The translations under genes and the position numbers were made by a program. The notes below the pieces were generated by a model that made no database searches, was not told the DNA's origin, and saw only the letters and a list, made by a program, of their open reading frames with translations. A stretch of DNA of 64,000 nucleotides from Flectonema sp. DT1601. Its lineage: Eukaryota. The DNA lies in contig OZ025786.1 of assembly GCA_964019425.1 (NCBI GenBank), positions 1 through 64,000 of the forward strand. Reading direction: 5' to 3'. Shown here piece by piece: positions 15,375 through 56,878 of the stretch (the first letter of the stretch is position 1; each line of letters begins with the position of its first letter).

Positions 15375-15397
15375 GAAACTGAGCACCAAACAAAAAC

Positions 15398-15470
15398 CGC
15401 CGTCAGCGGGTTTTGAACCCTCGACCACCATTCTTTCAGACCGGCGTTCTATCAATTGAGCTATGTAGCC
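15398..15470 (-). pseudogene. Degenerate tRNA-like element (Phe-GAA-like)
   Basis: GGCTACA TA GCTC AATTGATA GAAC G CCGGT CTGAAAG AATGG TGGTC GAGGG TTCAAAA CCCGC TGACGGC, then TTTTT. A/B boxes present; 3 acceptor-stem mismatches. Confidence 0.75.
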
Positions 15471-15490
15471 ACATAATCGCCGTTCCTTTT
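15443..15490 (+). repeat. Left copy of 48-bp target-site duplication of LINE-A
   Basis: 47/48 identical to 22077-22124 and abuts the element's poly(T). Confidence 0.9.
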
Positions 15491-15696
15491 CTTTTTTTTT
15501 TTTTTCTTTTTTTTTTGGGAACCTTCCTAGCCGTACTTTCAGCCCCTGCTAAGTGAGTCGCCTTTCTCTACCCTTTCTGTTGGTAGGTGAGTGAAGGTGT
15601 GTACTTGGAAGGCGAGCAAGCTCTCAAAGTCCGGGGCCCGACCGTTTGCCTTAGTGTCATTAGACTGGACTTTTTGCAAGGATCCTACCCTGAAAG

Positions 15697-15768
15697 TTGT
15701 CTATGGCCGGACTCGAACCTGGGTCGACACATTACCCAGGGAGCGTCCTACCATTAGACTACTTTCAC
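15697..15768 (-). pseudogene. Degenerate tRNA-like element within the LINE-A 3' segment
   Basis: A box TAGTCTAATGG and B box GGTTCGAGTCC at tRNA spacing; stems poorly paired. Confidence 0.6.
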
Positions 15769-15877
15769 CCCAATAAAATTTCTGACCTGGGGTCAGAGGT
15801 TGGGGCCCAACCCTTGGATTGCTCTCCTGCAGCTCACTGGTGTTTTCGCCTCCACCTTGGCATGCTGCTCCAAATTT

Positions 15878-15948
15878 CACCAGAGCAGGGATCGAACCCA
15901 GGCCTGCAGACCTTGAATCCAAACGCACTACCCCTCGACTAGAGCGCC
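15878..15948 (-). pseudogene. Degenerate tRNA-like element within the LINE-A 3' segment
   Basis: TAGTCGAGGGGT A-box-like and GGTTCGATCCC B box; acceptor stem degenerate. Confidence 0.6.
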
Positions 15949-16443
15949 CCCAAGTTCCTTTTTTTTTTTTTGGTTACACTCGTCTGTGCTTCCAGACTCT
16001 TTGTTTTTGTTCTTTTCACTTCTTTGTTTTGTCTTTCTTTTATACTTTCTTTTGATTTAAGTCTGACAAATTGGAAAACACGGGAAACATAGGTAGGCTC
16101 CGCCTGAGGACGTAAGAAGAGCGGCAACGGGAAAAAACAAATGGTCACGCGCCCTTGAAATTGGACACACGAAGCTAATTCGGTTACCATTCCTACCATC
16201 GATAAGGAAAAACAAAGAATCGAGCATATAACTAGAGCGGTGGTCAAAGACCACTTGAACAGCCCGAAGGCCTGCCCTCAAGAGAAATTTATAAGGAGAA
16301 TAGGAGAAAAAGGAGACAGGAGTGTTGGAAGAGACACTGCGACAACACCGAAGGTGATGTGCAGTTACCCAACCAGGAGATGATTGATAATGATGAAAAT
16401 ACTAAAATAACAAATTGATATTGGCGACTACATGTCACCTACT

Positions 16444-18918
16444 TTACTTCCAAAGTCTAAGGTTAGATGTTTGTTCCATCCACCCTATGATCAACACGAG
16501 TGATGGAAGCCACGCCAAAGTGAAGAGAGCTTCAAGGTTAGGAATTTCGTTGGCAATAATAAGTTCTCGATCGCGATCCCACTTGCCGGTCAGTGTTGAG
16601 AAGCCCAGGATTTTGAACCTGGCCGAGTCGAGTTTGGGAGATTGACATCCCTGTAGCAGGTGAACCTGTGAGGACGGTTCGCCACAAAATGGGCAGTCGA
16701 TCGTCTTGCGCCAGTTCTGAATTAGCGGGTGACATCCTGTCCGGAAGTTCGCTATCCGTATCTCGTCGGCTCTTTCCATCCCAGGAGGGTATTTAACTGA
16801 ACGGCCTCTGATGAGGTGTTTGTAGCAGGTGTAACCACTCACGTTAAGCAGATCCTTCTTGATGCAGCGCTTAACATGTGATGATCGCGAGAAGTAAGTG
16901 CCTTTGACTAGCACAGGTCGGATGTTCTTATTGTGCGCTGCTTCCTTTGCAAGCGCGTCAACTTCATCGTGAAACTCGATTCCAATGTGTGAGGGGATGA
17001 ATTGCAAATGCACTTTCATCTCACACATGCGCAGGTATTCCAGTATCTTGAGGGACTCGGAATTCTTCTGTCTGCATCTTCCACCCAGCAGTTCATCCAG
17101 AAGGGATTTTGAGTCCGTGAATATCCTCACGGATCTCATTGAGGGATCTTTGCTAAACACTGTTCTCAGATGTCTAGCCGCGTTCTTCAGAGCATGTTGT
17201 TCAGCCCTGTAGCTGCAGTCAGCTTGATAAAGCCTAGACGCGTAAGCAGATCGAAGGCCGCTACGTGACTTGGCAATATGAGCCGCACCGGCCGCGCCGG
17301 AAGCAGGGTAGGAGCCATCGCAGTTGATTACCATGTCGACAGGAGGTAACGTTCCAATGTACGACATGAATTTTTCTTTGTCCACCGCAGGGTTCGCGGA
17401 CTTCGGAAATCCGCAGCCGTTGCTAATCCTAAGGTTTGTCGGAGATACCCAGGGTTCCATCAAGTCAGGCTGTACAAGGCACTGGCTTTCACGCTGGCTG
17501 TCAATGCCAGGAAGGAGGCCAGCCCAGTAGCTTTGGGTTGAGGCGAGTCTGTTGGTACTAGGTATCCAAGTCATGGCTTTATACCTGTAGTACGCTATCT
17601 TGGTTTGCTTTTCAATCTGACGTTTAAAAGGAAGCATGTCCGCTTCCCACAGTAGAAGTTCTCTCGGTGTGCACCTGCTGCATCCAGTAACCAGCCTGGC
17701 AACCTTCCTCAGTTCGAAATCAATACTATCAACGCTGTTGCTTATCAACCAACCAAAGCTATCGAGTGCATAAGAGATTCTCGCAGTTATGTAAAGGTTC
17801 TTGACCATATTTAGCGTTTTGTAGTCAAGATCATACGGTTGAAGGCATTGAAGCAGAGATATTCCCTTTTTCAGTTCTTCATGAATCTTAGCCACCTGTT
17901 TGTGGAAAGTGAGTCTGTCGTCGATGTGAACTCCAAGGTATTTCACTGAGTCCACGATTGGCAACAGAAATGCGGTTTTAAACCTGGCTTTCACCACCAT
18001 CACGTTGTCTTCGAGAACAATATTCCGCAACATCACGTTGTCAAGTTCATCTTGCGTTTTGATCGGAGTTCCATCAACCTCGAGAATAGTTTCGCCGCTT
18101 TGAAGCATGGGTCTAGAAGAGTTTAAGTTGATACTCTTTTCAATGTCACTATAGTCCATTTTGATAACGTTTTCCACAACAGATCTGGAAAGTAGTAATT
18201 CGCGATTGCAGGTGTCGTTGAGAATCGTATCCCTCGTACGGACTATCATCTTAAGAGCACAGGTCTTTGAGACCGACAGGGCCATGTCGTTGTCAGAACA
18301 CCATTGATCCACTTTATCAAGTATTATTTGAGCATTTGAAAGAGCTTCTTCCATGTTATGTCCAGATACTACACATGCTGTATCATCCGCATACAGAGCA
18401 GACGTCGTTGTTTCTTTCTCCAGTTCCAAAATCTTGCAGAGGTCATCAACGTAGATAAGATAGAGAAGAGGACCCAGGATCGATCCCTGTGGAACCCCCT
18501 TAGCCAGAGTACGGAATTCGCTAAAATAACCATTCGCTTCAACTCTAACCTTCCTGTTTGTAAGAAAGTCTGTGATCCATCTGATAATAACATTCGGAAC
18601 ACCCATCTTTACCAATTTTAATAAAAGTATCTTATGGTTGATCCTGTCAAACGCAGCAGTAAAATCAAACGATAAGAACACCGATCTCTTTCTCTTCATG
18701 TGCATCCTTACGACGGCATCTACCAAAACGGTGATCTGTTCGCAGGTATTTCTCCCCCTTCTGAATCCAGCCTGTAGTGGGCTGAGTGACGAATGTTTAG
18801 TGAGCCAGTGCATGAGTCGGTCATACACGAGCCTCTCCGCAAGTTTCCCAACAACCGATGTGAGCGTAATGGGTCTGAAACTCTTCAGCTCATTTCGAGG
18901 TTTTCCAGCCTTGAACAT
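16444..18918 (-). pseudogene. LINE-A ORF2 C-terminal part: RT, RNase H, CCHC knuckle
   Basis: FRPITLTS, QAGFR, DFTAAFD, GVPQGSILGP, LYADD, KYLGV; RNase H DGS/RAE/TDS/PSHIG; CPFC-H-C. Frameshifted from the upstream piece near 18940. Confidence 0.93.
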
Positions 18919-20349
18919 AGGCTTGATTAAACCTATGATAACCTTGTTTCCACTGGTACGGTACTTTTGAAGTCTTCCAGGAAGTGTTAATAATTCTCAA
19001 GAGGTATTCCACTGTTGCCGGAGTGAAGTTTCTGATCATCTCATTGTGAACTCCATCAGGTCCTGCAGCCTTGCGGGTCTTCAGGTTCTTAATCGCTGCT
19101 TCAATTTCAGCCATTGTGAAATCACAGCAAATATCCATTTCATTATCACCTTCTGAGAGTGCGGGGGCCTCTAGCGATAATATTTCCGATTTCGAGACAA
19201 ACAGGTCCAAGAATGCTGATGGGAGATCGCAGTCGGAGATGTTGTCAACACTGATATCTTTACCAGCATCTTGTTGCAGTTCTTTGGTCTTCTTAAACGC
19301 AAAGGCAAAGTTGTTACCCTTGTCAAGTTGATCACGTAGGTGGACACCCTTCGATTTGGTAGAATCAGGTGTTGACGTCTTCCACTTTCGTCCCCGTTTC
19401 CCTTTGAAAAGGAGACGTCGACGAATGAATTTAGCCGCCACTTCATGCAGTATGTTGTTAAAGAGCTTGGCATTCGCAGTTGCATCGTTGGAGAGTTTCG
19501 ATTTTCTAATTCTCTTATCGAGCATATTTCCAAAGCAGTTCCAGTCCGTAGACTTGAAGTCCCACACTACGCGTTTCTTAGAACCTATCGTGGCCCGTGT
19601 AAGTTGACACATGGGACCCAGTACGGTGTAGAGAGGTCGGTGATCAGATCCATGTTTATTATCTTCTCTAATTACAGAGAATTCTTCCAGAATCATCGAG
19701 TTTTGAAAAAATACTACGTCCGGCGAGGTACCGCCCCCCGGGATATTAGGAAAAGGCCTTGTGATTGACCCCATTTTGTTGGCTACCAGTAGATCATTGT
19801 GTGCTGCCCATTCATGTAGAGTAGAACCTGCTGGCGTCGATTTTGATGACCACACCGGATGATGGGCATTAAAGTCACCCGCGACGATTGCTTTCGTTGA
19901 GACAGGAAGATTTGACTTTCTGATCTTGCATCCCGGGGGAGCATAAATATTTAAAATGTCAATCTTTCCACCTATGTTGACCTTTACAACTTCAACATCA
20001 TTTAAGTGAGGCGGAAGTACAATATCAGAACGCTGCTGAGTGTGGCATTTTTTCACCATAGAAATAACCCCTCCACCTCGTGTTGCCCTATCATTCCGAT
20101 AGGTGAAATTACATCATTCGTCCAAGTCTCCTGTAGGCACAGTACGTCAGGCGCATAGGCATTTAGCAGCTTGTGAATATAGGCGCCTTTGTTCCCCATC
20201 GATCGACAGTTCCAGCTCAGTAGAGATATGAGAGAGTTGTCAGGGCCAAGGTTGCGTTCGACGTCGCCTGCCTTTAGCAGCAGTTCACGAGCCGTATCCT
20301 TTTCCACAAGTGAGTTGGTCGGACTGAGTTCATCCTCATCGTCATCTAG
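18890..20349 (-). pseudogene. LINE-A ORF2 N-terminal part: 2A-like peptide and APE endonuclease, with a frameshift/deletion near 20060-20100
   Basis: LLLKAGDVERNLGP, SWNCRS, LQETW, NIYAPP, GDFNAHH, SPDV, SDHRP, KAAGPDGV. Confidence 0.9.
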
Positions 20350-22039
20350 TCAGTTGAGATCAAAGTCCGAATCGTTACTTTCCATTTCTACGTCACGGTT
20401 CTTATCACTATCCTGCTTAGCAGCAGATTCGGTGGGCGGTGTTGTTGTTTGTGCTGTTGCTGGTGCTGGCGTTGGTGTTGGTGCTGATGGTGCTGGCGCT
20501 GGTGTTGGTGCTGATGTCGGCTGCTGAGTTGGCTGTTGTGGTTGAGGAGTTGTTTTTTGTCTCTTCAGGGTTCCCGTTAGTTTTTGAGCCGCGTCGCCTG
20601 GGTTGTAGGTTGGGCCTAGCGGTTTTCTGTCAGTTCGTTTAACTTCTTTGTTTATCACAAGGTATTCATTAGTACCTATGCTTACGAAGTTGGGCGGTTG
20701 AGATTTCGCAATTGCAACAATTGTAGTACTCCCTCCTTTATGGAAAGAAGCAACAACTGTGTGTTCCCAGTTGTGTGAAGACTTCAAGAAGTCGCTGATC
20801 TGCGCTGTCGAGTACTTACGAATCGCCATCGAATTTATAACAAACCTGTCGCCCGAGGGCAGTGCAGGCTTGATTGCCGCGTTGAGCTTAATGCTGACCC
20901 TGATATTACAGTCAGGGTGGACTCGGAGTCCAAAACAGCTTTTAAACCTGCACATGTAGAATTTTCCTTTGAATTCATCAAGTGCAGAAGTCTTGGACTT
21001 CGCTGCCAGGAAGCCAAGGTCGTTTTTGAATTGCAACGTTGGCCAAACGTCACTTCTGTTTGACTAATTTGGGTTTTTGAAAAAGACATTCTTGGGTTTG
21101 TCAGTTTCGGGTTCGCTGTTGTTGTATTCCAGAACCTCGTGTACTTGGTTTCTGGGGACTCTGAAAGCCATCGAGGTGTGGGACTTGTTTTTTTTGTAGC
21201 TAAAGGGGTCCGCCTTTAGCTAGAATATCGGTCGTTTTGACGGTCAATTCTTTCTCAGCTGATTTTCCCCAGTCTTGGATGAATAGAACTGGGTTGGGAG
21301 TTGGAATCTGGTGGCTAGTTGCTGCTTTAGAAAAGTCGTCACCAAATACGTGCGTGTAAAATACGCGCCTGATCTCGCAGACGCCACCCTCTTTTATCAC
21401 CGGTAATGCTACTGGAACGGTGCTCTTTGTGAGCGGGATTTTGCTGATAGCAGCCCAACGGCCGCTCTTCTTTGTTTGGCGGAGTGCTTCTAAGTCTAGC
21501 TTCGAACAAACTAAAACAAGACCAGAGGTAAGGTTGTTTGTAGCATTAGCTGCTACGTCGTAACTGATGGTGGCCACAGTGCCTGCCCACGCACCGTGAA
21601 TGTGCCACTCCGGGTAGCTTGCTTTTGCTTTTCCCTTCGTGGCTTGATTGTCCTTCATTGCTGTCGGTATCGGCAATGAGAACGGCTTCGTACTCGTCTG
21701 TTGATTAGAAGCTGTAGATGCTCCTGTAGTTGGTTGGTTGACACCTGTGGTTGAGGGTGTCGTCGCTTCTGCTGCCGTCGTCGCGGTCGCTTCCGTCCCA
21801 CCACTCCCATCGAGTGTGTCCGGTGTCCTCCTCTTCATCTCCGGGTTCCCACCTTCTGACCCAGCTACGAATTGGACGATCTCCATTAGGAGATTTGCCA
21901 CCCTTCTTTCCTTCTCTTGCTCCGGGATCCCGCCTTCCCCCACTATCTTCAGGAGGTTTATTGCCTCCGATACCAACCTCCTCAGGTTGTCTCTCATAAT
22001 TGCTTTTTCCTGTGAAACGTACCCACTGATTCTTACCAA
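20350..22039 (-). pseudogene. LINE-A ORF1, split by a frameshift near 21200
   Basis: ORFs 21200-22039 and 20350-21036 share blocks with the intact LINE-B ORF1 (LPVIKEGGVCEIRRVFYTHVFG vs VPLLLDGKTVVRKAYATTISG). Confidence 0.75.
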
Positions 22040-22055: not shown

Positions 22056-22071
22056 CAGTAAAGTACAGAAA
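22056..22071 (-). other. SL exon 3' remnant (TTTCTGTACTTTACTG) at the LINE-A 5' end
   Basis: 15/16 match to the 3' end of the SL at 40220-40257, preceded by a short CTGTAC duplication. Confidence 0.8.
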
Positions 22072-22076
22072 GTACA

Positions 22077-22124
22077 GGCGTTCTATCAATTGAGCTATGT
22101 AGCCACATGATCGCCGTTCCTTTT
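22077..22124 (+). repeat. Right copy of the LINE-A 48-bp TSD
   Basis: Matches 15443-15490 with one A/G mismatch. Confidence 0.9.
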
Positions 22125-22245: not shown

Positions 22246-24082
22246 ATGACTCGTGTAAATTTTGAGTTCCCTGAGTTCTTAATTGAGACTTGGAAGGCGC
22301 AGATGGGTGAGGAACCACCAAAGAAGCTCGATAATATCAATCTGGACGAGCTGGTTGCAAGCATCCCCTTTAGTATCGACTTAAGTACATTGAGATCCGA
22401 CAAGGAGACAAGAAGGTTGATCCAAGGCACACTGGCCATGTGTCTCGGGATCCCCAATGATGCGGCCAAGACACTTTCGATGAATAAGTGTCTAGTAATA
22501 CTTGGTGTGTTATCAAGGAGCCGCCTGCAGTTGGTCAACCAGAGCGCCGCCCGGATGAGCGAGCGGATATCTAAGGGGGGGTCGGATAGGCTGGTGACGC
22601 ACGACGAGGCGGAGGATGCGATGGGATCGCTGCAGCAGAGCACAGACACACTGAGAAGTGATACCAAGCAGGGGTTCGACTCGCTGAGAAGCGAAACGCA
22701 GACGGCGTTTAGCCAGTATCAGAGGGAGAGCCAATCAGTGAGGAGAAGGGTTGGGGAGGCCACTGAAAAAGCCGAGAACATCGGAGGCATGTGGGAGGCC
22801 TTCAGAGAGCAACAGACCCAACAACAACAACAACAACAAGCTAGCGTTATCCAGCAAATCACACAACAGCAGAGAGATCAGCAAAAGCAGAATGCGGAAG
22901 TGATCCAGAAAATCTTACAAGAAATCAGCAGATCTGAAGAACGGGTTGACTACGGCTCAACAAGTTCCAGTAGTCGGGGGAGCAGCACAGCAACAACCAG
23001 CACCGGGGTCGAACGAAGCGATGACACGGGAGGTGACTGATCCGTCTGCAGGCAGGGATGTAACAAAGTGGGCATCCGTTATGAAGTCAGGAAAGACCGA
23101 GGTACTGATCCATGGGATCAGGGAGCGGTATGTGAACGGTCTGGAGTACAAGGTTGGTAGGGGCCAGCTACCTGGCTTCTTCAGGCAGTTGAAGAACTTC
23201 GTTCTCGGTTTGGAGTACGTTGAAGGGTGGGAGGAGAACCCGCACTTTGTGGAGTTGGGGAACGAGCTGCTGGAGCAACTGCGGATGCAGTATTACTTTT
23301 GCAAGGATGGTATGAAGAGATCAGAGTTGGAGATGATCTTAGAAGTTGCATCGGAAGACCCTCTGGAGAAGGCAAACGCAATGGCGAAGAGAAATAGAAA
23401 TGCGAAGATGCAACAACCGAAACGGAAAGGGGGGAGATCGTTTGTCTCTACGTATCCATCGTCGGGAAACGGGAGAGGGTTCGCGAAGTGACCAGCCGAC
23501 CGGACCCTGCAAGTAACAACAAAACCAACGTTCCTAAAACGAAGGTTAGACACGCAAGTATTGGAAACATCCCCATTGCCAAAGTTAAAGTTGAGAAAGC
23601 CCGCAAGACTTATGCAGAAGCACCCAAGACAGGTGTTGAGGAGCAGCCGACTAAAGACAAGGTTAGGAGGATCTGTAAGTTTAATCGTTCAAGACCCGGA
23701 CAACCTTGTAAAATCCGCAGTCCGAGGATTCCCCAGCGGAAGGGAGATGAAAATAAGCTCAGTTGGAACAGAAGAGATCGCAGATTCAACGGAAACAATG
23801 CCCTCAGAAGGATTAGAAGGAAATGTGGTTGGGAAGATCCTGTTGGACATGATGGAGGGATGCCCAGAGGGGGCGAAGAGGCGGCATGCCGAGGACCCCG
23901 TCATATACATGGAGGCGACAGAAAAGCTTCAAGAAACACTGGAGAAGATGTGGGCCTCAAAGACAACAGCAAGCAGGCGGAACCTGTGGAGAAGATTTCG
24001 GGCCTGGGCAAGGGAAAAGGAGAAACCAGCAAACGCAAGCTCGGCTGTTCTGTTCGTGATGGCGACAGGTGTGGCAGTGCAA
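22246..24082 (+). mobile_element. 5' portion of a DIRS/TATE-like YR retroelement: gag-like ORFs 22246-23040 and 22946-23491, then the start of a YR-like ORF; truncated at ~24082
   Basis: Overlapping ORFs with coiled-coil and poly-Q. LWRRFRAW...AVLFVMATGV resembles the N-terminal helical domain of TATE-like recombinases. Paralogous fragments at 14587-15068 and 29176-29382. Confidence 0.65.
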
Positions 24083-24705
24083 GGTACTGCTGATCGTTGC
24101 CATGAGAGGTTGAATAGTCTTAGTAGTTGCTCGAGGAAAGCTTTTGGAAGTTGTTTTAACATCGAGTTCCAGATGTGGTCAGGTCCAGGTGCCTTCTTCT
24201 CCTTTGTTTTTGAAATTTGTCGTTCCAGTTCAGGCATTCCAAATTCCACTGAGTTGTCATCAGGTATTCCTTGTAAGGTTGGTTCACCGTCTTCGAATTT
24301 GAATTGGTCTGCGTATGTTTTGGTGAAGACATCTGCCATTTCCCGCGGGTCGGTTAATTCCTTCTCACCATCGACAATCTTAGTAATTGAATGGTCCATC
24401 ATTCTACCTTCCAGTTGTTTAACTTTTCTAAAGGCCCATCGGTAGTCCATTCCAGTCATGTCGCACTCAATGATCTTCTGTTTGATCATATTGATACCTC
24501 TTTCAATTGCTTCTGAGCCTGTCTTATCAGGGTCAGTCCCTGCCATTAAATCTTCCAATTCTGAATCCCTCACAGCGAAGGTACTACTTGACTTTTTGTT
24601 GTAGCCTGGGATGGCCCTTCTCGCTGCTCTCAGAATCTCGTTGTTGATCCTATTAGCTAGTTTCTGCACATTCTTAATTCTTTCTAATTTGGGCGCTGCC
24701 CTTTA

Positions 24706-25431
24706 TCAGAACAATATTTTATAATAATTCCAATCGGCACAATGCCACTTCCATTTCCATGTTCCAGAACTCTCTTTTGAATATTCATCTGTTTTGATAT
24801 CTTCGATTGTCAGTTTGAGCGGCAGGTGATCGCTGCCCCATCCCTTCATGAGTTCGATTTGTGCATCCAAAGAAATATCTAATGCAATTACATCCGGAGA
24901 GGCTGGGCTCTGTGGTCTTGTGTGTTGTTGAGATTTGTTTAGAATTTGAATTGCTGCTTCTAGTGACCAATCGTAGAAGCTGTTACCAGTAATGTTCGTA
25001 TTTCCATTTGACCAAGTTGAATGGTGTCCATTAATGTCACCCGCAATCAATGTGCCGGGCCCTGTTTTAAACTTCCATGTTGTTGCCTTGATTTCAGGCG
25101 GGTGGTAAACATTGTGAATTGCCAATGGCGGATTAGATTGAAGTACTACTGTTAATATCTCAGTTTGGTCATGTGAGATGTCGGGGTGTTTTAATATTAT
25201 CTTATTTAAATCATTTCTGACCAGAGTGACGAGTCCTCGATGACCTGACTTGATGGTGCTGCCTCGCCTGTGGATTGCATACCCTTCAATAGCGAAGTGT
25301 TTTTCTTTAGATAACCACGTTTCCTGCAGTAGTACTACATCAGGCTTTTCTTCTTTCAGTGCCCAGTTCAATCGAAAGTAATTTTCTGGTTTCAGAACTG
25401 AGCGTATGTTATTTGACCAGATCACAATCAT
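24706..25431 (-). pseudogene. LINE-C ORF2 APE endonuclease; continues frameshifted to ~24082
   Basis: APE motifs; its ATG overlaps the ORF1 stop (ATGA, 25431-25428). Confidence 0.9.
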
Positions 25432-27289
25432 GATTGGCCAGTGTTGTTCCTATTGGTCGCACTTGTAGTAATCTTGTTCATACCAAGATTGTTCTCAATC
25501 CTCTTGACAGCTTCTATCAACGAAGTGATGGCTGTCGCCATGTTGTTGTTGGCTGCTTCGTTCTTTTTCGTAGTTTGCACTAGGGTTTCTACAATCCCGG
25601 TTATCTGTGCCATGCCTTCATCAAGTCGAACTTGCATGTCCTTCACTTCTTTCTGGAGACGTTCGATAGTCTCGTTCGTTTTCTCTCTCAGGCTGTTGAC
25701 GTTGTTTTCTACAACCTGAACTTCGGCCGTTGGTTTCTTCGTTGTCGGGAGTGACCTCTTGACCGCTGCTGCATACGATGTTCTAGCCCCACGGTACTTA
25801 ACTACAACAGGTTTCGCTGTTTCCTTCGCCTTCACTTCTGTTTCTAACTTTTCAATGAGGATGACAATATCACCACACTGTACAAACCTTGATTCTGGTT
25901 TCTTGTCCAGTGCGATGATAAAGTCACCTCTATCCATCCTTATGAACTTTGACTTCAGTCCTATCTCCAATAGGATATTCCGAAGTCTGTTTCCCCAGCT
26001 GTAAGGTGCTCCACTGAGACGGTGGAGCCCTTCGCCAAACACTGTGGATGCATATTTACCAGCACCCTTTCTGACTTTATCAACATCCTTTTGATAAACC
26101 ACCCTCAATCCAATCTTGCCATGAATGATGGTGAGTCCATGGCAGAGGTCATGTTGGGCTTTAAGTATGCCAACTGCCTCTTCGTTCGTTGTCTTGCGGT
26201 CCAGCCACACTGTAGTGTACTGAGTGGGTGTCTGTCCCGCCACTGATTTGATCCGGAAATAAACATTTCCTATTCCGGAGTTTCTTAATAATGCAACAGC
26301 TGCATCCACGTCGTTTGGGAGAACAGTGAGTTCTACGTAGTCTTTGCCAACGTATCTGTAGGAGCGTTGATCGACTCTTCCGTGTTGTGCCACAACAGCT
26401 TTGACAATTGCTGTTACAGCTGCCGGGTTTTGGACTTGTGACTTGGTCAACTCTTTAGTTGTTATCCACGCAATTAATTTGTGGGTCACCGTGCGTTGAT
26501 CTTCTTAGCTATTGTTAGAGTTGGGCGGTGGATCGTGCCAGACAAAGCAACGAACCACCAGCTTCTTATTCTTAATTGCCCATCAAACTGGACCGGCGTT
26601 TGTATCTGACTGCAGCCAGTTGCGTGTTGTAGGGCACGTTTTGGAGGTGGTCGTGTGAACACCATCGTCAGTTGCTTCGTTTTGCTGGCCTTTTCGAAGT
26701 AGTCTTCGTCCAGGCTTCTTGCCTGTTGAGATAATGCAAGTATAATGCCGTTGGTCTTGCTGTTGAGGGTCTCAGTTGGCTGGAGTATTTTGCATTTAAA
26801 ATGCTCCTTGTTGAGTTTCGGTGGTGGCCCATCCATAATCACCGTTGATCTTCTTTGTGCCTCTTTGATTTGAGGGCTTGATTGGGGTGCCTCATTTGAC
26901 GGAGGGCTTTGTTTCGTTTTTAATACACTTCCTTGTGCCTCTATGTTTTGAGGGCTTATTTGAATTGCCTCTTTGTTTTGAGGGCTTGTCTTAGTTTGAG
27001 TTGCCTCCTTGTTTTGAGGGCTTGCTTGAAATGCTGCGGGAGGTCCTACTACGGTCACTTCTACTGCTATTCCTTCCGGTACTTCTGGAGAGTCCATCTC
27101 CATTTCTTCCTCTGATACTTCTGGTGATTCTCCCATCACCACGTCCTCGTCTTCTTGCTGTTTTTGGGTCTCTTCTTCCCGGATCTCATTTCTGGCTTGT
27201 TCCCTCATCTTCTTCGCCTCTTTCCTTTCTCTTTCTCTCCTTTCTGCAGCCCTTCTATCTTGCGGACGCATTGCTTTCTTTCCAGCCAT
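25428..27289 (-). pseudogene. LINE-C ORF1 in two frames (27289-26486 and 26489-25428)
   Basis: TPVQFDGQLRIRSWWFVALSG block and C-terminal coiled coil resemble the ORF1 of LINE-A and LINE-B. Confidence 0.75.
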
Positions 27290-27316
27290 TTTAATTTTTT
27301 TTTTTTTACGTTAAGA

Positions 27317-27598
27317 CAATAAAGTACAGTAATTATCTTGCATCCTTTGGGCACCTGTTTGGAAGAAAGGAAACATGAGAAACAATTTAAAATTCGTGAA
27401 AAAGGTATGCGCGAAACGGGGTTCGAAATCTGATAAATGGGTGTGAATTAAGAATTGGTATTAAGAAACTAATAATCATAATGTTGGATTTACATTATGG
27501 GAACGCATCGAAAAATTCGATGCTTGGTGAAACGGTGCTTTGGGATGCTGCAAATTACTGAAATATATTTAACAGAAACTGTAGCTTTAGAATCGTTG
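27317..27598 (-). other. Split SL exon copy at the LINE-C 5' end
   Basis: 27572-27598 = CAACGATTCTAAAGCTACAGTTTCTGT and 27317-27329 = CTGTACTTTATTG; both match 40220-40257 exactly. Confidence 0.9.
27327..27560. mobile_element. MITE with imperfect ~33-bp TIRs (CAGTAATT...GCATCC...GCACC..GTTT), Tc1/mariner-like
   Basis: CAGT...ACTG ends, preceded by TA, inserted inside the SL copy. Right TA not cleanly preserved. Confidence 0.6.
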
Positions 27599-27673
27599 CT
27601 ATACAAAAAAAAAATTTGTCACGGGAGAAACAACCCCCCAATGAAAGAATTATAAAATTTATTTTTTGTTGCT

Positions 27674-33950: not shown

Positions 33951-36900
33951 TCAGGGATTAATTTTGAATAGTATATCTATGTAACTCCGAGTCGGAGGAC
34001 CTCGCACCTTGTAGTCGAACCACTTCCGTTCTATCCGCTCATAGTTGGCGTAGTGGATCTTATTGAGCAGATCAGTAAATTGAGTCTTTTCTATACCATT
34101 ATAGCAGAAAAGCTCAACTGTCCACAGAAAATTGTGTATTTCCTCGATCACCGTGTGATTGTAGGCATTATCGATGGCTTGTAAGACTTCGAGCTTATCT
34201 CGAGAAGTGAGTTTCGGAAGGTTAGAGAATTTAACAAGATGCCTCAATAACCACTGTCTCGGCAGGGCCGCACGCAGCGGAAAGCTCTGCAGGTAGCTCT
34301 CCAGGTCCTTCAGCATTGCAGCTAGTTTCGGCTGATTCTCTGTGGCAAAGAACGTATGGTGGTGTTGTCCGTCATTTGTCGGGTCATCGCATTGCGGGAT
34401 GTCCGGGAAGAATTGCTGCACTATGATCCTCGCGCCATTACATCTCGAGAGAAGGTGATGTGCGTCTGTGTCGGTGTGATTACAGAATCGACAGTCAGTA
34501 AGACCCAAGGCAGGGAGCTTTACCAGTTCGTGATGACCCGTTCTCACTCGGGCTATAATAATCTCGTCACTTCTTAAAAGGTCCTGATGGAACTTCTGTA
34601 CCCTACCAGACGATGTTGCCAAGTTGTGGACGTGTCGCGTATCTCGGGAGCGAAGCCATGCTTTTCTGACTTGGTTCACAATTGAACATTGAGCCATTCG
34701 GTAGTCAAAGGGAACCTCCGTGAGCGGTATCTCAGATGACGCAGCTTTGGAAGCCAGGCTATCAGCTAACTCATTTCCAATAACACCACAATGAGAAGGT
34801 ACAAACTGCATCGTAAACGGGCGATTCAGGGTGGAAATCTGGCTGAGAATCTCGTGGTTGGTGCGCGAATGCTGGCAGAGGTACCCCTTGGCCAAGCTAC
34901 TCAGCGATGACTGGCTGTCGGATATGATGTGTATCCTGCCGTTCGGTAGTTGTGGCGAATTATCGCGGACGATATCCAGAGCCGAGATCAAAGCCCTCTG
35001 TTCTGCGTTGTAAATCATCAGAGAGGGGTTATAGCGCTGTAGCTTCGTGTAACATTTATTTCGGAAAACCAAGACCGCAGCATTCCCACAGTGGTAACAC
35101 CCATCTTTGTCCTCAAAGTAAGAAGCATCTGTATAAACACGTGCAATCGCAGGTGGCAAGGATTCGATTGATGCAAGGGCATAATTTAGGTTGTGCTCTG
35201 TGTCTGGTGACTTACGAAAGTCCCTTGAAGGCAGAACCGTGACGTTTGGAGGAGGTTCCCAAGGAGCCTGATGGTGAGGCAGGTAGAATCTGGACTTGAC
35301 ACTGGGCGTCGGGAAGCATTTCGAGAAGTGGGTTGCTGAGGATTCCCAACGTCCTTCCTCCCCCTCTCCATTGAAAAGACTCCAGGTCGGAGCATTCTCT
35401 GCGTATCGTTGGTAACGTTCGTAGATGAGAGCCATGGATTTAGCCAGGTGTTGTTTGAATGGTAGGATGTCGGATTCTACTGAAACAGCTTGGACCGAAG
35501 CTGATGAAGAGCAACCAGTTAGCTTAAGCATGAGCTTCCTGTGTATGGTTTCTACGCGTTTCCATGAGTCTCGGCGGAGATAGGGTGCATATGCTGCAAG
35601 TCCGTGGTAAGCTCTCGCTAGTACAAGGCCGTTAACAAGTTGCCTTAGCACTTCAGTTTTAATTTCGAAAGATGAGATCATCTTCAAGAGACCAATTCCC
35701 CGTTTCATAGTGCTAGTCACCTTATTCAGCTGGGGTTCGAATGTCAGTCTATCGTCAATCAGCACACCCAGGTAGCGAGCATGTTCAACACGGCGAATAG
35801 GTATTGCTGTAAAAATGTCAAGCTTCTTCTTGCCAACCCTGCTGCGAAAATCGGTTCGAGTTGATACGTCTCTCCCATTCACTGTCAAGGGAAAGACGGG
35901 ACCACTTTCCAAATTTAACTGAGCGCCAGGACCTTCGTCTAATTTGTCCAACAAGAGCGACGGTTGGGAGAAGGATTCTAGTCTTTTCGTTGATGGTAGG
36001 TACAGCCTAGGGAATCTGCAGAGACCCTTGCCGGAGTCAAATCGAGTGCCGATCGCCAGGAATTCGGTCTTGGCCTGCGACAAACTCATGTTCGAGTCAG
36101 AGAGCCAGCTTTCTACCTGTCCAATCGCTTCATTGGCCTTGGTTTCAAGGTCTCCAATCTTATTGCTGCTCACAAATACTGAGAGGTCATCAGCGTAGAG
36201 CAGTTTAATGTCTGCTTTCGTGACAGACTGCGGGAGTGTGTCGACGTACAGCCTGAAAAGGAGAGGTCCCAGAATACTACCCTGCGGTACCCCCTTATTA
36301 CAACCAATATCCTTCGAGTATGTTTTTCCATAAAGAAGCCGCGCTGAACGGTTCGAAAGGAAGTCCACTAACCATCGTACATATGGTTTGGGCAACAGCG
36401 GGATAAGTCTTTCTACTAATATACGATGGCTTACGTTGTCGAAAGCTCCGGAGATATCAAAGAAGAGTAATACGCCACATTTTTCGAAGTCTTGTCTGGT
36501 TTCCGACGCAGCGTTAGCCAAGATCGCAATATTTTCATCCGTAGTTCTGCCAGGAACAAAGCCTGACTGATTGGGGTCTAAGCTCCCCTCCAATAGGTGT
36601 TCCAATCGGCGAAGGATAAGAGCTTCAATGAATTTTGCAACAATAGAAGTCATTGAAATAGGGCGGTACGAAGAAGGTTCTGAGGGGTCTTTTCCATTGC
36701 CTTTGAGAAAAGGAATGACGTTTGCCTTTTTGAAACACTCGGGGAGGATACCTCGTCTTAGAGACCAGTTGGCTATACGAAGGAGTACCAAAATCATTTG
36801 CGGTCCCAGATGTAGAAGCATGTTATTCGAGATGGAGTCCGGTCCTGCACTGTTTGTTCTCTTGAGGGAACTGAACACAGCCCGGGCTTCTTCCTGCGAG

Positions 36901-38105
36901 AAAGGACTACACTCCGGAGTTTCATAGTCACCAGGTTTTACCTTTGGAGCTTCTGGCCTAGTACTGTCAGAGCCGCTTGGGAAGAAACGGCTTATAAGCG
37001 ACGTCATTGGAGCTCGTGGTGTTGGAAGTGCCGTCTTATCACCCCTGAGTTCCCGTATTTTTCTGTAGGTCCACGAGAAGCCCTTATCACAACCTTGGGA
37101 GGCTACTTGGCTGGGGGATAGAGGAGCTAGGATACGTTCCCTTCCCTTGTGTCGAGGCTTGCACCACTTGTTGGGTAGCTTGGCGATTGCTACTTTTTCT
37201 ACCGTATGGACAAAGTTGTTTGAGAGTTTCTTCAAGGATTTTATCTTTAATAGTCGTGTTGTGTGTGATTCCAATGTATCAGAAAAGGCTGTCCAGTGTG
37301 CATCTTGGAACTGATTGAGGAGCCATTTGCGGTGTGGTGGTGAGTTGCTAAAGTTTGAGAAAGTCGTGATATCGAAGTCCGCTAAGATAGGTGTATGATC
37401 CGACATTAGTGCGTCAGGGTCATATTGGCAAACGCTCAGACATTTATGCTGAGGAGAGTGTAAGACCAGATCGGGGGTTGTACCGTGTTTCGGAATCGTC
37501 GGTTTGAGCTGAACTAACTCCAATCCATTGTCATTTATCCAGTCAAAGACCGTTGAGCCTGCTGATTTTGTAGGGACTTTCTGTGACCAGGATTCATGAT
37601 GGGCGTTAAAGTCACCAAAAGCCATGTCACCTAGATCGTATGATGATGGAAGGCGTGAAACACCGGGTGGAATATATATATTCTTAAAAGTTATGGAACC
37701 TATTGTTGAAGCGAGGCTGAATTCCAGCGCCTCAATGTCGGAGGATCCAGATGATACGTCGTTGTTGTGAGAGATCTTTAAACCATTTCTGAAATACGTC
37801 AGTAGGCCACCACCCCGGCTCTTGGAGACTGTCTTCCTGTCTCTCCTAATGTACGAGTACCCATCCATATGTAAAAGATCACTGTTGTTCTTATTCAGCC
37901 AGGTCTCCTGCAGGTTTATTATATCAGGGTTTGTTGCGTTAACGATGGACTCTAAGGCTGCTCTAGTGTTAGTAAGCGACCTTAGATTCCAGGATAAAAT
38001 TCTCAGAGGACCCGGGTTTTGTTCTATCCCCGATCGGATTAGGAGCTGCCTCGCGGTGACCGTCAGATGGAAATCCCTGCTGGGATGTGGTTGGGGATGT
38101 CGTTG
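33951..38105 (-). CDS. LINE-B ORF2: 2A-like, APE, RT, RNase H, CCHC. The open frame starts at 38105, upstream of the first ATG (37868).
   Basis: Hand translation QRHPQPHPSRDFHLTVTARQLLIRSGIEQNPGPLRILSWNLRS...LQETW precedes the listed Met. Also GDFNAHH, SDH, YRPISM, GVPQGS, YADD, YLGV, TDAS/NAE/SDS/PSHCG, CRFC-H-C. Confidence 0.93.
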   Translation of the reverse strand, partial: QRHPQPHPSRDFHLTVTARQLLIRSGIEQNPGPLRILSWNLRSLTNTRAALESIVNATNPDIINLQETWLNKNNSDLLHMDGYSYIRRDRKTVSKSRGGGLLTYFRNGLKISHNNDVSSGSSDIEALEFSLASTIGSITFKNIYIPPGVSRLPSSYDLGDMAFGDFNAHHESWSQKVPTKSAGSTVFDWINDNGLELVQLKPTIPKHGTTPDLVLHSPQHKCLSVCQYDPDALMSDHTPILADFDITTFSNFSNSPPHRKWLLNQFQDAHWTAFSDTLESHTTRLLKIKSLKKLSNNFVHTVEKVAIAKLPNKWCKPRHKGRERILAPLSPSQVASQGCDKGFSWTYRKIRELRGDKTALPTPRAPMTSLISRFFPSGSDSTRPEAPKVKPGDYETPECSPFSQEEARAVFSSLKRTNSAGPDSISNNMLLHLGPQMILVLLRIANWSLRRGILPECFKKANVIPFLKGNGKDPSEPSSYRPISMTSIVAKFIEALILRRLEHLLEGSLDPNQSGFVPGRTTDENIAILANAASETRQDFEKCGVLLFFDISGAFDNVSHRILVERLIPLLPKPYVRWLVDFLSNRSARLLYGKTYSKDIGCNKGVPQGSILGPLLFRLYVDTLPQSVTKADIKLLYADDLSVFVSSNKIGDLETKANEAIGQVESWLSDSNMSLSQAKTEFLAIGTRFDSGKGLCRFPRLYLPSTKRLESFSQPSLLLDKLDEGPGAQLNLESGPVFPLTVNGRDVSTRTDFRSRVGKKKLDIFTAIPIRRVEHARYLGVLIDDRLTFEPQLNKVTSTMKRGIGLLKMISSFEIKTEVLRQLVNGLVLARAYHGLAAYAPYLRRDSWKRVETIHRKLMLKLTGCSSSASVQAVSVESDILPFKQHLAKSMALIYERYQRYAENAPTWSLFNGEGEEGRWESSATHFSKCFPTPSVKSRFYLPHHQAPWEPPPNVTVLPSRDFRKSPDTEHNLNYALASIESLPPAIARVYTDASYFEDKDGCYHCGNAAVLVFRNKCYTKLQRYNPSLMIYNAEQRALISALDIVRDNSPQLPNGRIHIISDSQSSLSSLAKGYLCQHSRTNHEILSQISTLNRPFTMQFVPSHCGVIGNELADSLASKAASSEIPLTEVPFDYRMAQCSIVNQVRKAWLRSRDTRHVHNLATSSGRVQKFHQDLLRSDEIIIARVRTGHHELVKLPALGLTDCRFCNHTDTDAHHLLSRCNGARIIVQQFFPDIPQCDDPTNDGQHHHTFFATENQPKLAAMLKDLESYLQSFPLRAALPRQWLLRHLVKFSNLPKLTSRDKLEVLQAIDNAYNHTVIEEIHNFLWTVELFCYNGIEKTQFTDLLNKIHYANYERIERKWFDYKVRGPPTRSYIDILFKINP

Positions 38106-40148
38106 CTATTGCTTTGACATAGAACTCCGGTGAGGCGTCCTACCCCGTGATCTGCTGGGGGTATTCGTTCTGTCCCCGTAGGGAGAGAAGGAGTCTTGTA
38201 GCTGCTTTGCCACCTCTGATTCCTGTCCCAGGACTGATTTAGACCTGATTCTGTTCAGCATCGTCTTGTTGGATGCTTTCTTCGGAGGTGCCTTCGTGAC
38301 TGGTGCTGTTGTGACTTCAGCAGTTGGAGGCTGTGCCGGCTTACCGTGCACCGGAGGTTTCATGTTCTGAGGTGGCACTTCAGTTGTTTCCGCAAGAGGA
38401 GACCCTTCCGGCGATGAGGACTGTTGAAGAACAGTGTGTTCGATCGAGAGTTTCTGCTCGTGCATTTGGTTAAGCCGAGCTAACAACTCCGATATTCTTC
38501 GTGACAGGTTAGCCACTTCGTCGGTGAGTCGGGAGTTCTGTTCCTGCATTTTAACTTGCTGTTTCAGAAGATCTTGGATGCGAGCGTCTCTGTCTTCTAA
38601 TGACGCCTGTGTCCGTGCTGACTGGTCCTTCTGTTGTTGATCTTGACGAGCCATGAGATCCGAGGCCTGTTCTGTTAAGCCCGTCACTTTGTCGGTTAGG
38701 TGGCCGTTCTGGACCTGCATCTGTCGCTGTTGTTTGAGAAGTTCTCCGATTCGAGTGTCCTTAGCGGAGTCGGATGGGGACGTAGTGTCAGTTGGGGTGC
38801 TGTTGTCCGGTGAAGGAGCAGAGTCATCTGGTGAGCTATCATCTATTGTTGAAGTAGGGAGCGATGGATATTCCGCTTCGTTACGTGGTGGCGGTTCTCG
38901 TTTGGACTCTCGGTTTATAGTCAGGAGGCCATGTCCCTTGCAGTGAACGGTGGAGAAGGTCGGTTCTTCTAGTGATTTCACTACAAAGAAACCTCTGCTA
39001 CCCTTCTTCCTGTGGTGAGTCGCTGTGTCTACAATCCAACCCTGTCCACCTAGAATCTTGATGAGGTCTGTAGTGCTGATCCTATGGAGAGAGGGACCTG
39101 TTATGAAGTAGCGGGTACCCGGTGTTGGAGGAGGCATGGCTAGTTGTCCCAGAGTCTTACGTGTATCTAGTTCCCTTCCCGGGTAAGTAACTAAACCAAG
39201 CTTCTTCGTTCCACGAAGAAGGATGACTGCCGCGTCGCAATAATCTGCAGCCTTGCGGGCAGTATTTAAGTCTGCTGTGTCCAGTCTGATCACGACTGTT
39301 TTCGGTAGGTCTTCTTGTATGTGTCTCGAAGCAGAGATAAAGAAGCCCTTGTGTTCCGCTGGAACGTGCGCTTGCAGGCGGTGAACTGCATCAGTAGGTA
39401 TACGAAGGTTCACCGATGACACCTTCGGGGTGCGGACTTTAGATGCCCATATCTGGTGACGGTCTATGGGAGAGAAAGAGTGGTTCTTCGCAAAGTCGTT
39501 GTAGATCTTCAAGGCCGCTGCAGATAGATCCGAGGTTGAGAGTGCTTCGGTCTCACCGTGTCCAGAGTGGTAGTTCAGTTGAACCACTCCGTTCGATACA
39601 GGATCCCCGCCCGAACGGACTAAAAGTTTGGCTATGGAGCCTGAGATTGTCGTTGCGTAGGCCTTGCGGACTACCGTCTTACCATCTAAGAGCAAAGGTA
39701 CTTGAATAAGGGTACCTTTACCCGGGTCTTCAGTTGTAATTGCCGTTAAACGGCCTGTGTTGCTTCGTCGTTGGAGTTGTGGTATCTGGTCTGTCGGTAA
39801 CAGAAATACAGCCGAAGCCACTGCAGGGTTGTTGATGACTTCACAGCCATCTTTGACCTTAAGGTCCCAATCCTCGTCGCGGAGTTGAGCCTTCCCCCAC
39901 GGTTTTGCTGGTTTTAGTTGTCTGGACACTACTGTTGCCCATGACGAGTTCTTCTTCGTATCTTCAGAACCCGTCTGCCTCGGTGTTTTCGACTTTGGTC
40001 TCGGTGATGGAGCCGTTCTCGGTGGAGCTGCCTTCGGTCTCGACACTGATGGCGGCGGAGGTTGCTTGTTCCTGCCATCTTGCGTGTTAGCTACCATGCT
40101 TAGCAGGGCGCTTAACAAGGTCTTCAACTGGACCCTCTTCTTTTTCAT
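38106..40148 (-). CDS. LINE-B ORF1 (680 aa, coiled-coil, Pro/Ser-rich ends)
   Basis: Position upstream of ORF2 and homology to the ORF1 pieces of LINE-A, LINE-C and 42690-43280. Confidence 0.88.
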   Translation of the reverse strand: MKKKRVQLKTLLSALLSMVANTQDGRNKQPPPPSVSRPKAAPPRTAPSPRPKSKTPRQTGSEDTKKNSSWATVVSRQLKPAKPWGKAQLRDEDWDLKVKDGCEVINNPAVASAVFLLPTDQIPQLQRRSNTGRLTAITTEDPGKGTLIQVPLLLDGKTVVRKAYATTISGSIAKLLVRSGGDPVSNGVVQLNYHSGHGETEALSTSDLSAAALKIYNDFAKNHSFSPIDRHQIWASKVRTPKVSSVNLRIPTDAVHRLQAHVPAEHKGFFISASRHIQEDLPKTVVIRLDTADLNTARKAADYCDAAVILLRGTKKLGLVTYPGRELDTRKTLGQLAMPPPTPGTRYFITGPSLHRISTTDLIKILGGQGWIVDTATHHRKKGSRGFFVVKSLEEPTFSTVHCKGHGLLTINRESKREPPPRNEAEYPSLPTSTIDDSSPDDSAPSPDNSTPTDTTSPSDSAKDTRIGELLKQQRQMQVQNGHLTDKVTGLTEQASDLMARQDQQQKDQSARTQASLEDRDARIQDLLKQQVKMQEQNSRLTDEVANLSRRISELLARLNQMHEQKLSIEHTVLQQSSSPEGSPLAETTEVPPQNMKPPVHGKPAQPPTAEVTTAPVTKAPPKKASNKTMLNRIRSKSVLGQESEVAKQLQDSFSPYGDRTNTPSRSRGRTPHRSSMSKQ

Positions 40149-40219: not shown

Positions 40220-40257
40220 CAATAAAGTACAGAAACTGTAGCTTTAGAATCGTTGGT
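40220..40257 (-). other. Retrocopied spliced-leader exon ACCAACGATTCTAAAGCTACAGTTTCTGTACTTTATTG (38 nt)
   Basis: Euglenozoan SL 3' end CAGTTTCTGTACTTTATTG with a diplonemid-type 5' half. Followed by ATC, not a GT donor. Confidence 0.95.
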
Positions 40258-55448: not shown

Positions 55449-56312
55449 TTAAGCAAACCAATGACAACCAGACCCATCAACATATTGATCCTGGTCACCA
55501 CCAAGTAAAGCTTGCTGCGCGGCCACGTTATTAATCGTGAGGTAATTGCTTAACACGCTACTGGCTGGGAGTCCTGCAAAGCCACCCTGCATTTGTGACA
55601 GAGCGCTCAACTCAATTCCACCAGCGCCAGTTCCGTTAGGAATCAGACTAACACCATTGAGGTTTGGGATCGTTCCGAGAATTGGTTTCGGAGGAGGTTG
55701 TGTTGCAGCACTCTGAGCAATCTTCTGACCCTTCTTCTTCTGTGTGTAAACTTCAAGGTAAGGGTTATGTTCTTCGTTGCGGCGAACTTGTTGATCGCCG
55801 TGGGCGAAGGCGCATCTCTCAGCGAACTGACAATGGATTCCCATCGACCAGTTGCGGCAGACTTTTGTCCGAAACTTTGCGAGATCTACTGCTGGTGCAC
55901 CTTTTGGTCTTTCTAAGACGTCACCAGTGAGTGGATCAAATGAAACAGGTGGGGGGGCTTTGTCTGTTGTGTTAGAACCTGAAGATGAAGATGTTGCTTG
56001 AGGAGGAGTGATATCAGTTATTCTCTGACCAGTTAATAATGGCATTGAACTAATTGATGATGCAGCCTGTCTGCTACCTGTCGATGGTGTTCCTAAAGGA
56101 GTACTACTTGCAGCCACACTTATCTGACCTCCACAAACGGCACTACCAGAACCTCCAATCCGAATCTCATCTCCCCACGACTTCCCACTCCCAACTACTG
56201 CAATGGCTGCTGATGCTGATGCTGGAGGCGCAGCAGGTGTTGGAGCGACAGTCGCAAAGTCCAATTTGAATGGATCACTTCCCGAACCTGCCAGTGGATC
56301 AGGAGCACCATT
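55449..56312 (-). CDS. CCCH zinc-finger RNA-binding protein (5' end uncertain, probably an upstream exon)
   Basis: KFRTKVCRNWSMGIHCQFAERCAFAHG (C-x8-C-x5-C-x3-H). The frame is open to ~56320 without an ATG; candidate acceptor AAACAG at ~56313. Confidence 0.85.
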   Translation of the reverse strand, partial: NGAPDPLAGSGSDPFKLDFATVAPTPAAPPASASAAIAVVGSGKSWGDEIRIGGSGSAVCGGQISVAASSTPLGTPSTGSRQAASSISSMPLLTGQRITDITPPQATSSSSGSNTTDKAPPPVSFDPLTGDVLERPKGAPAVDLAKFRTKVCRNWSMGIHCQFAERCAFAHGDQQVRRNEEHNPYLEVYTQKKKGQKIAQSAATQPPPKPILGTIPNLNGVSLIPNGTGAGGIELSALSQMQGGFAGLPASSVLSNYLTINNVAAQQALLGGDQDQYVDGSGCHWFA

Positions 56313-56878
56313 GCTGTTTGTTATTTATGAAAGTCAGCAATCGATGCGAAGATAACTTTGTATCGCGAAAACGATCAACGATAATAAATAATAAACACAT
56401 ACTCCATCTTCTCCAAGTCCTTTAGAAGTTCGTCCAAGTGTCCGAATGACAAATTGGAAGGTGGTGATGGTGGCGGAACAGCTGAAAAAGGTGACATCGA
56501 AATTTTCTTTCTCGTCTACACTGTTCGAAGAAATATAAATTAGAAAATAATAAAATGAAGAAATCACTCCTCTCAACAACAACAGGCTTTAGAATTAATT
56601 AACAAACACCTCTTCTGTGGTAAGTCTGTTACTTCGAATACGGTTAGGGGTTGGAACTTATTTAAATGGTTTTTTTTTCTCTCTTCCTTTTTATTATTAT
56701 TTGCGAAGGATCTCGATTCGGATATAAAGATGAGGGGGAAAAAAAGAAATAAAACAATAAAATGAATCTTTGGCATTGGCAATGGTGTAAAGAGTACGAG
56801 TTTGAAGGGGAAAAAAGAAAAAAAATTATTTTTGTGTCGAAGACATTTCCAACAAAAAAAAAAAACATCCGACTGATA

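Follow-up and report, generated by a model that had tools for sequence, protein, structure and literature searches.

ORF1-ORF2 junctions of two Flectonema LINEs

The window analysed here is a 64,000-nucleotide stretch of DNA from Flectonema sp. DT1601 (contig OZ025786.1, positions 1 to 64,000), in which 14.6 kb of a perfect 8-mer repeat are followed by three long interspersed nuclear elements (LINEs) on the minus strand. In two of these, LINE-A and LINE-B, the second open reading frame (ORF2), which encodes the reverse transcriptase (RT), lies in frame with ORF1 behind a stop codon and a 2A-like motif, and this arrangement is our subject. Coordinates are collected in Table 1.

The ORF2 proteins match PF03372/PF14529 and PF00078 (RT), the APE endonuclease of LINE-A being PF03372, which makes the elements APE-type retrotransposons lacking long terminal repeats (non-LTR). 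RNase H (PF00075) is matched in LINE-B and listed for Flectonema relatives, yet not in the LINE-A protein P0121. The Ingi clade has an RNase H domain after RT. LINE-B comprises a single uninterrupted APE-RT-RNase H frame of 1384 codons. Both elements are dispersed in multiple copies, their ORF2 clusters comprising 101 (LINE-A) and 18 (LINE-B) proteins encoded on long ENA contigs; the window's own LINE-C proteins lie on one of these contigs. Among named relatives, the proteins nearest to LINE-A ORF1 and ORF2 come from the transcriptome of the diplonemid Flectonema neradi, with 43-60% identity, in agreement with the euglenozoan origin assumed by the original prediction. LINE-A and LINE-B are 30% identical in ORF2 and 22% identical in ORF1 (E 2e-6), and their groups are sisters in an RT tree (Shimodaira-Hasegawa-like approximate likelihood ratio support 91); this quick tree of 86 rows, which contains no named reference elements, places both among unnamed relatives, several of them with a 2A.

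Read on the minus strand, LINE-A ORF1 ends CTC AAC, TGA (20352-20350), CTA GAT, and the frame continues through LDDDEDELSPTNSLVEKDTARELLLKAGDVERNLG (35 codons) to a proline, the 36th codon. Eight residues separate this proline from the APE motif SWN, which lies at residue 10 past the DVERNLG boundary. The original prediction had described exactly this junction, from AAC-TGA-CTA-G on to SWN, and had pointed to a second, dissimilar element with a different readthrough signal. That element is LINE-B, which reads CAA TAG CAA CGA, then 32 codons to GIEQNPG and a proline, with SWN at residue 6. The first in-frame Met past the predicted skip site is residue 16 in LINE-A and residue 48 in LINE-B, beyond SWN in both and beyond QET in LINE-B, so that a start there would cut into the endonuclease. 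Both leaders contain in-frame CTG/ACG codons, and that of LINE-A contains a single in-frame GTG. In contrast, LINE-C joins ORF1 to ORF2 by an ATGA overlap and has no 2A.

The 2A core is the canonical GDVERNPGP in the three other LINE-A copies that reach it and is broken (NLGP) in the window copy, whereas LINE-B carries a non-canonical GxExNPGP. NPGP is retained in LINE-A, LINE-B, P0103, P0002 and the Flectonema protein P0105. LINE 2As span 18-30 residues (PMC3894237), and the leader lengths of LINE-A and LINE-B are consistent with such a 2A plus a short spacer; a 2A motif by itself is insufficient for skipping activity (PMC3708506). Taken together with the evidence below, we consider it likely, at a probability of about two in three, that LINE-A and LINE-B make their reverse transcriptase by two serial recoding steps, stop-codon readthrough followed by 2A StopGo.

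The stop codon is a family trait

Two LINE-A clusters hold 33 ORF1 members, 28 of which are listed, and 15 of the 101 LINE-A ORF2 members are listed. Among the listed ORF1 proteins, 21 of 28 end in SDFDLN at the stop, seven break earlier and none runs past. Likewise, four of five LINE-B ORF1 proteins end in SSMSKQ at the stop, the fifth is shorter, and none continues. In the Flectonema transcriptome, two ORF1 proteins terminate at the matching place, with Asn as last residue as in LINE-A. A search of proteins of 416-2000 aa gave four matches, none of them an ORF1-ORF2 fusion, which is a weak negative. On the ORF2 side, three of the 15 listed LINE-A proteins are called from the leader GTG and all three read DVERNPGP, while the other 12 start downstream. 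As NPGP is present in all three other copies that reach the motif, NLGP is a lesion of the window copy, whose frame, judged against the family proteins, is also broken near 21217, 20107 and 18937 and interrupted by a nonsense codon at 21066-21064; the original prediction had likewise attributed NLGP to a copy with other lesions.

At the DNA level, three public sequencing runs gave weak matches, none of those listed being RNA. One of them, X3, yielded a 151-nt contig at depth 2 that crosses the stop, is ~83% identical and aligns to 20269-20408 with 24 differences in 140 nt; no contig from two public runs spans the NPGP site. None of the differences falls within 20342-20358, and TGA-CTAG is thus kept. 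Sixteen of the 24 differences are listed, and 10 of these 16 affect the third base of a codon, both before and after the stop. Past the stop they comprise three D/E swaps, two silent changes, an S-to-N and a V-to-T, the last turning the leader GTG into a Thr codon.

The LINE-A stop is therefore a family trait and not a lesion; it is retained across copies, and the frame beyond it is open and conserved, as in readthrough. The family consensus of TGACTAG plus NPGP expected by the original prediction holds at the protein level (21/28 ORF1 ends, 3/3 DVERNPGP), and at the DNA level TGA-CTAG is kept in the one depth-2 contig. The family-wide stop, the NPGP copies and the X3 contig together give good support to the further claim of selection over chance nonsense mutation, and the stop and its layout are real, family-wide and probably selected.

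These data also bear on the view that the stop is an ordinary terminator in a chance context, the 2A a vestige of an Ingi-like ancestor, and ORF2 protein (ORF2p) the product of an internal AUG. In its favour, few elements are involved, LINEs often carry inactive or degenerate 2As (PMC3708506), and P0002 has His in place of the key Glu. An internal start would, however, lose SWN (and QET in LINE-B), the leader stays open with mostly third-position or D/E changes, and NPGP persists across ~30% identity, and we judge this view very improbable.

Processing of the RNA would be a further way past the stop: the AG of TAG or CTAG could serve as a trans- or cis-splice acceptor, or the stop could be edited to a Trp codon. 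Both contexts contain YAG, diplonemid mRNAs are trans-spliced (PMC10161547), and the elements have leader-like 5′ ends. Against this, the LINE-A AUGs after the AG lie in the +1 frame and soon reach a stop. Moreover, spliced or edited templates would return stop-free copies, yet 0 of 33 ORF1 proteins run on, and the RNA-derived Flectonema ORF1 proteins end at the stop. We regard RNA processing as quite improbable.

Separately, four ORF1 proteins from two species (P0348, P0349, P0350 and P0351) have unlike tails and all end in Asn, and the codon preceding the stop may matter.

Stop contexts match published leaky motifs

In both elements a published leaky motif lies directly 3′ of the in-frame stop, UGA-CUAG in LINE-A and UAG-CARNBA in LINE-B. 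UGA-CUAG, which the original prediction had rightly named as a known readthrough motif, has been shown to make mammalian cells read through the stop, the CUAG context working best after UGA, and the tobacco mosaic virus (TMV) motif takes the form UAG-CARNBA in yeast (PMC4132726). Tobamoviruses and Providence virus typically combine an upstream A with UAG-CAA (PMC3542737).

Of the 3774 codon pairs counted in the LINE frames, 14 start with CTAG, 27 with CARNBA and 95 (2.5%) with any of CTA, CGG or CARNBA. The chance that both stops fall in this leaky set is ~6 in 10,000, a post hoc value that depends on a motif set of our choosing and treats related elements as independent. Outside the satellite, the window contains 1948 occurrences of TGA, 6 of which have CTAG directly after them, and a check of 10 further long-ORF stops showed no leaky context.

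A genome-wide reassigned code, in which TGA or TAG would stand for an amino acid, finds an echo in the two Gln codons that flank the LINE-B TAG. This explanation is close to refuted, as the 2064 LINE-B codons (92 CAR, 24 TGG) contain no in-frame TAG, TAA or TGA, frames here being stop-to-stop so that their length is the evidence, and TGA terminates seven of 10 other long ORFs checked.

Stops between ORF1 and ORF2 at other loci

The wider survey set comprised 200 metagenome and metagenome-assembled genome (MAG) contaminant loci, with 46 endonuclease starts examined. A metagenome scan with the LINE-B N-terminus gave no match, and a DNA pattern of 2A plus WN returned 26 viral loci, where no endonuclease start could be seen behind the 2A motifs listed. 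A looser pattern, run over 30 of 64 metagenome parts, returned 120 loci, most of them chance matches; of its 16 in-frame rows, four are APE LINEs in which the skip site lies 103-144 codons after the stop. Alignment searches gave no match in viral contigs and, in prokaryote MAGs, 259 LINE-like contaminant contigs, of which none of the 80 kept is diplonemid-like. With the exception of L079, the 2A-bearing loci have short upstream frames and 52-172 codons between the last stop and NPGP where a stop is in view.

At 11 loci, a long in-frame ORF precedes a single stop; 10 of these have no 2A, and in-frame ORF1/ORF2 stops thus occur in other LINEs too. Nine of the 11 have TAG followed by G (eight) or CGG (one), and the other two are L207 and L079.

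These nine (L150, L151, L158, L160, L162, L168, L186, L187 and L190; for example L168:2337-2339) are LINEs of the animal type and lie on contaminant contigs in MAGs of symbionts. Their ORF1, of 593-742 codons, has a C-terminal zinc knuckle and is in frame with ORF2, and a GDSL esterase was found in all three that were scanned. They have no 2A and no common Met position, and the pattern looks like amber readthrough. At L207:1438-1440, a 365-codon upstream frame ends in TGA-CTA two codons before the endonuclease; the first Met lies 340 codons later, and this second UGA-CUA junction has no 2A.

Leader starts in sister families and evidence against readthrough

Several observations weigh against readthrough followed by 2A release. 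The LINE-B 2A lacks the canonical Asp, and CAACGA, which follows the LINE-B stop, matches yeast CARNBA and not plant CARYYA. No stable RNA structure is predicted after either stop, folding being no better than in shuffles (z 0.64 and 0.65); readthrough motifs of these types are reported to need no downstream structure (PMC13517186). The stop contexts read as full DNA number two, plus the depth-2 contig of 151 nt. At the divergence of that contig, 16 differences in 74 nt, seven unchanged bases are expected about one time in five, and it therefore shows that the stop is not private and says little on selection of CTAG. In addition, the unrelated locus L079 has a TGA-TTG stop, non-leaky, 35 codons before NPG/P, and a Met in its leader, from which it follows that stop-to-2A spacing alone is not diagnostic.

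The remaining points come from sister families, in which translation starts are called inside the leader, 34 (P0103), 33 (P0147), 30 (P0002) and 29 (P0078) residues before the skip, and likewise in Flectonema, at 31 (P0105) and 33 (P0150) residues. In P0121 a GTG is rendered as Met by the ENA caller, and ENA-called starts may therefore be GTG or TTG, while the Flectonema starts, from ORFs marked 'complete' by TransDecoder, are probably true ATGs. For P0103, our guess is that a stop-CTA-GTG junction could yield its start at the same 35-codon spacing. Two proteins of the same clade, P0104 and P0166, have a Met start right at the endonuclease. Re-initiation may thus operate in some sister families, and the lineage may mix routes, the 2A serving whichever is used.

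For LINE-A and LINE-B, the corresponding alternative is termination followed by re-initiation in the leader, at AUG in some families and at non-AUG codons in these two, with the 2A trimming the leader to give a uniform ORF2p N-terminus. It draws on the called starts of three sister families, which lie 29-34 residues ahead of the skip, the in-frame CTG/ACG codons of both leaders, the ATGA overlap used by LINE-C in the same window and the published route of SART1 and L1 (PMC5972666). Nevertheless, neither leader has an in-frame AUG and the LINE-A leader GTG is not kept in the X3 contig. Furthermore, re-initiation has no need for in-frame ORFs and leaves the two different leaky contexts unexplained. 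On this evidence we consider re-initiation unlikely in LINE-A and LINE-B, and favour readthrough followed by StopGo.

Comparison with known systems

A 2A before APE is described in Ingi/L1Tc and animal LINEs as accompanying ORF1 loss (PMC3708506, PMC3894237). LINE-A and LINE-B resemble Ingi/L1Tc in having a 2A directly ahead of APE and a euglenozoan host, and the L1Tc motif DIEQNPGP is to be compared with GIEQNPGP of LINE-B (PMC3708506). The Ingi clade is, however, described without ORF1 and most 2A LINEs as single-ORF elements, whereas LINE-A and LINE-B carry an ORF1 of 552 and 680 aa with a leaky-type stop and are not single-ORF elements. A few 2A LINEs with ORF1 (CR1-26_BF, CR1-53_BF, CR1-1_LG) were termed intermediates (Odon 2013, PMC3708506); the word 'readthrough' is absent from the available text of that paper.

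Read-through of an ORF1 stop has been proposed for the Paramecium non-LTR Group 3 (Guerin 2017, PMC5405496), where readthrough is likewise a proposal; that group is a ciliate clade for which the available text mentions no 2A, so that a fusion protein would result. In the pseudoscorpion Cordylochernes scorpioides, a 2A lies between the ORF1p and ORF2p domains, as in LINE-A and LINE-B, but the elements are described as single annotated proteins, and no interdomain stop is reported in the portion of the preprint available (bioRxiv 10.64898/2026.06.17.732966). OPRL1, AQP4 and alphaviruses have the same UGA-CUAG stop and 3′ context as LINE-A, and the UAG-CARYYA/CARNBA of TMV, Providence virus and yeast is the counterpart of LINE-B (PMC4132726, PMC3542737, PMC13517186, PMC9841425); in those systems the product is fused or protease-cut, unlike the 2A release proposed here. 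SART1 (UAAUG) and mammalian L1 are similar in having a bicistronic LINE RNA and low ORF2 output, and the LINE-C overlap is of a similar kind, but their start codon lies at or after the stop, whereas LINE-A and LINE-B have none in frame (PMC5972666, PMC10275272). Compared with gag-pol readthrough, a 2A would take the place of the protease.

Literature searches aimed at a serial stop-then-2A layout, with supplements and Repbase-type reports outside their scope, found none, and no LINE with stop plus 2A is described in the available text of PMC5009743, PMC8310308, PMC12846837 and bioRxiv 10.64898/2026.09.24.754024. The supplements of bioRxiv 10.64898/2026.06.17.732966 and 10.64898/2026.09.24.754024 catalogue retroelement 2As by the hundred, and elements of this type may be among them. 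The 2A before APE and proposed LINE readthrough are each known, and what appears to be new is their occurrence in series.

The elements and their surroundings

Table 1. Positions of the LINE features in the 64,000-nt window.
Feature	Position	Strand	Remarks
A-rich run, second	15487-15516		Adjoins 51-bp stretch duplicated at 22074-22124; possible target-site duplication of LINE-A
A-run after LINE-A 3′ untranslated region	15959..15971	(-)	
LINE-A ORF2	16444..20244	(-)	APE, RT, RNase H-like region, C-terminal Cys/His motif; frameshifts near 20107 and 18937
Pro codon after predicted skip site	20242..20244	(-)	Predicted first ORF2p residue; skip predicted from 2A motif
LINE-A leader	20245..20349	(-)	35 codons in frame, no in-frame AUG; ends in 2A-like GDVERNLG (other copies GDVERNPG)
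CTAG readthrough context 3′ of TGA	20346..20349	(-)	Motif per PMC4132726
LINE-A ORF1 stop codon TGA	20350..20352	(-)	Family ORF1 proteins end here; kept in X3 contig
LINE-A ORF1	20350..21997	(-)	~552 aa in intact copies; broken in window copy
LINE-A 5′ end	22056..22076	(-)	Fragment of 5′ motif common to LINE-B and LINE-C
LINE-C	23929-27310	(-)	Truncated element; unrelated 621-aa ORF1
LINE-C ORF1/ORF2 joint	25428..25431	(-)	ATGA stop/start overlap, no 2A
LINE-B ORF2	33951..38009	(-)	From Pro after predicted skip; 1352 aa, intact, APE-RT-RNase H
LINE-B leader	38010..38105	(-)	32 codons, no AUG in any frame; ends in 2A-like GIEQNPG
LINE-B ORF1	38106..40148	(-)	680 aa, intact; stop TAG 38108-38106, CAA before, CAACGA after
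LINE-B 5′ end	40220..40257	(-)	38-nt spliced-leader-like sequence

All three LINEs open with parts of one common 5′ motif (minus strand, 22056-22076, 27572-27600 and 40220-40257), which we take to be the diplonemid spliced leader, an identification that a literature search did not confirm. If it is right, the elements were copied from trans-spliced RNAs bearing both genes and the stop, and the occurrence of a spliced-leader-like motif at the start of three LINE families suggests copying from trans-spliced RNA. LINE-A is flanked by A-runs and the 51-bp duplication, and no sense-strand A-tail is seen in LINE-B. LINE-A ORF1 has no Pfam match, no Foldseek match at E <= 0.001 and no useful Atlas match; in its low-confidence structural model (pLDDT 48), RRM and ACT domains tie, with Z of 6.3-7.5 and a root-mean-square deviation of ~3 over 70-80 residues.

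Beside the LINE-A 3′ end (15390-15960) lie several tRNA-like units with A-runs, resembling short interspersed nuclear elements; ARAGORN called no tRNA in the window, and Rfam gave no real match. The repeat at 1-14586 is a perfect GTTTGCGG array, a telomere-like satellite with its G-rich strand toward the contig interior. The minus strand also holds an ORF of 559 codons that has a P-loop-like motif and lacks a Pfam match (45104-46783), a CCCH zinc-finger ORF (55449-56324) and a 798-codon ORF with an ADP-ribosyltransferase domain (ART, PF01129; 58921-61317).

Proposed mechanism and its significance

In the mechanism we propose, ribosomes would enter a single RNA at its 5′ end and synthesise ORF1p, after which most of them would terminate. 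A few percent would decode the stop, UGA-CUAG in LINE-A or UAG-CAACGA in LINE-B, and go on through a leader of about one exit-tunnel length, whereupon the 2A peptide would trigger StopGo. This would free ORF1p with a 33-36-residue tail, and ORF2p would begin at the proline, 6-10 residues before the first endonuclease motif. Rare readthrough would thus set the level of ORF2, and the 2A would give ORF2p free of ORF1p. The ratio of ORF2p to ORF1p would then be low and constant, as it is in gag-pol readthrough, and a free ORF2p would arise with no need of a protease.

More broadly, and with confidence only a little above even, we suggest that a diplonemid LINE lineage has kept this two-step switch across 30% identity and a change of stop and motif, the leaky stop metering ORF2 and the 2A, one exit-tunnel length on, freeing the enzyme in a protease-free version of gag-pol. 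Such a switch would explain the persistence of a 2A beside ORF1, and it may be the ancestor of the single-ORF Ingi/L1Tc elements through ORF1 loss.

The 2A-LINE papers call the translation of ORF2 from a two-gene LINE RNA an open question and treat the 2A as a substitute for ORF1 (PMC3708506, PMC3894237). Elements that combine an ORF1 with a leaky stop and then a 2A would offer a compact answer to how ORF2 gets translated, in the form of a cassette of ~120 nt; its steps are separable, and Diplonema transformation exists. If true, the proposal would be evidence that UGA-CUAG and UAG-CAR readthrough operate in Euglenozoa. Furthermore, the same genome holds a LINE with an ATGA overlap and possibly families with an AUG in the leader, so that the routes to ORF2 would be comparable within one host.

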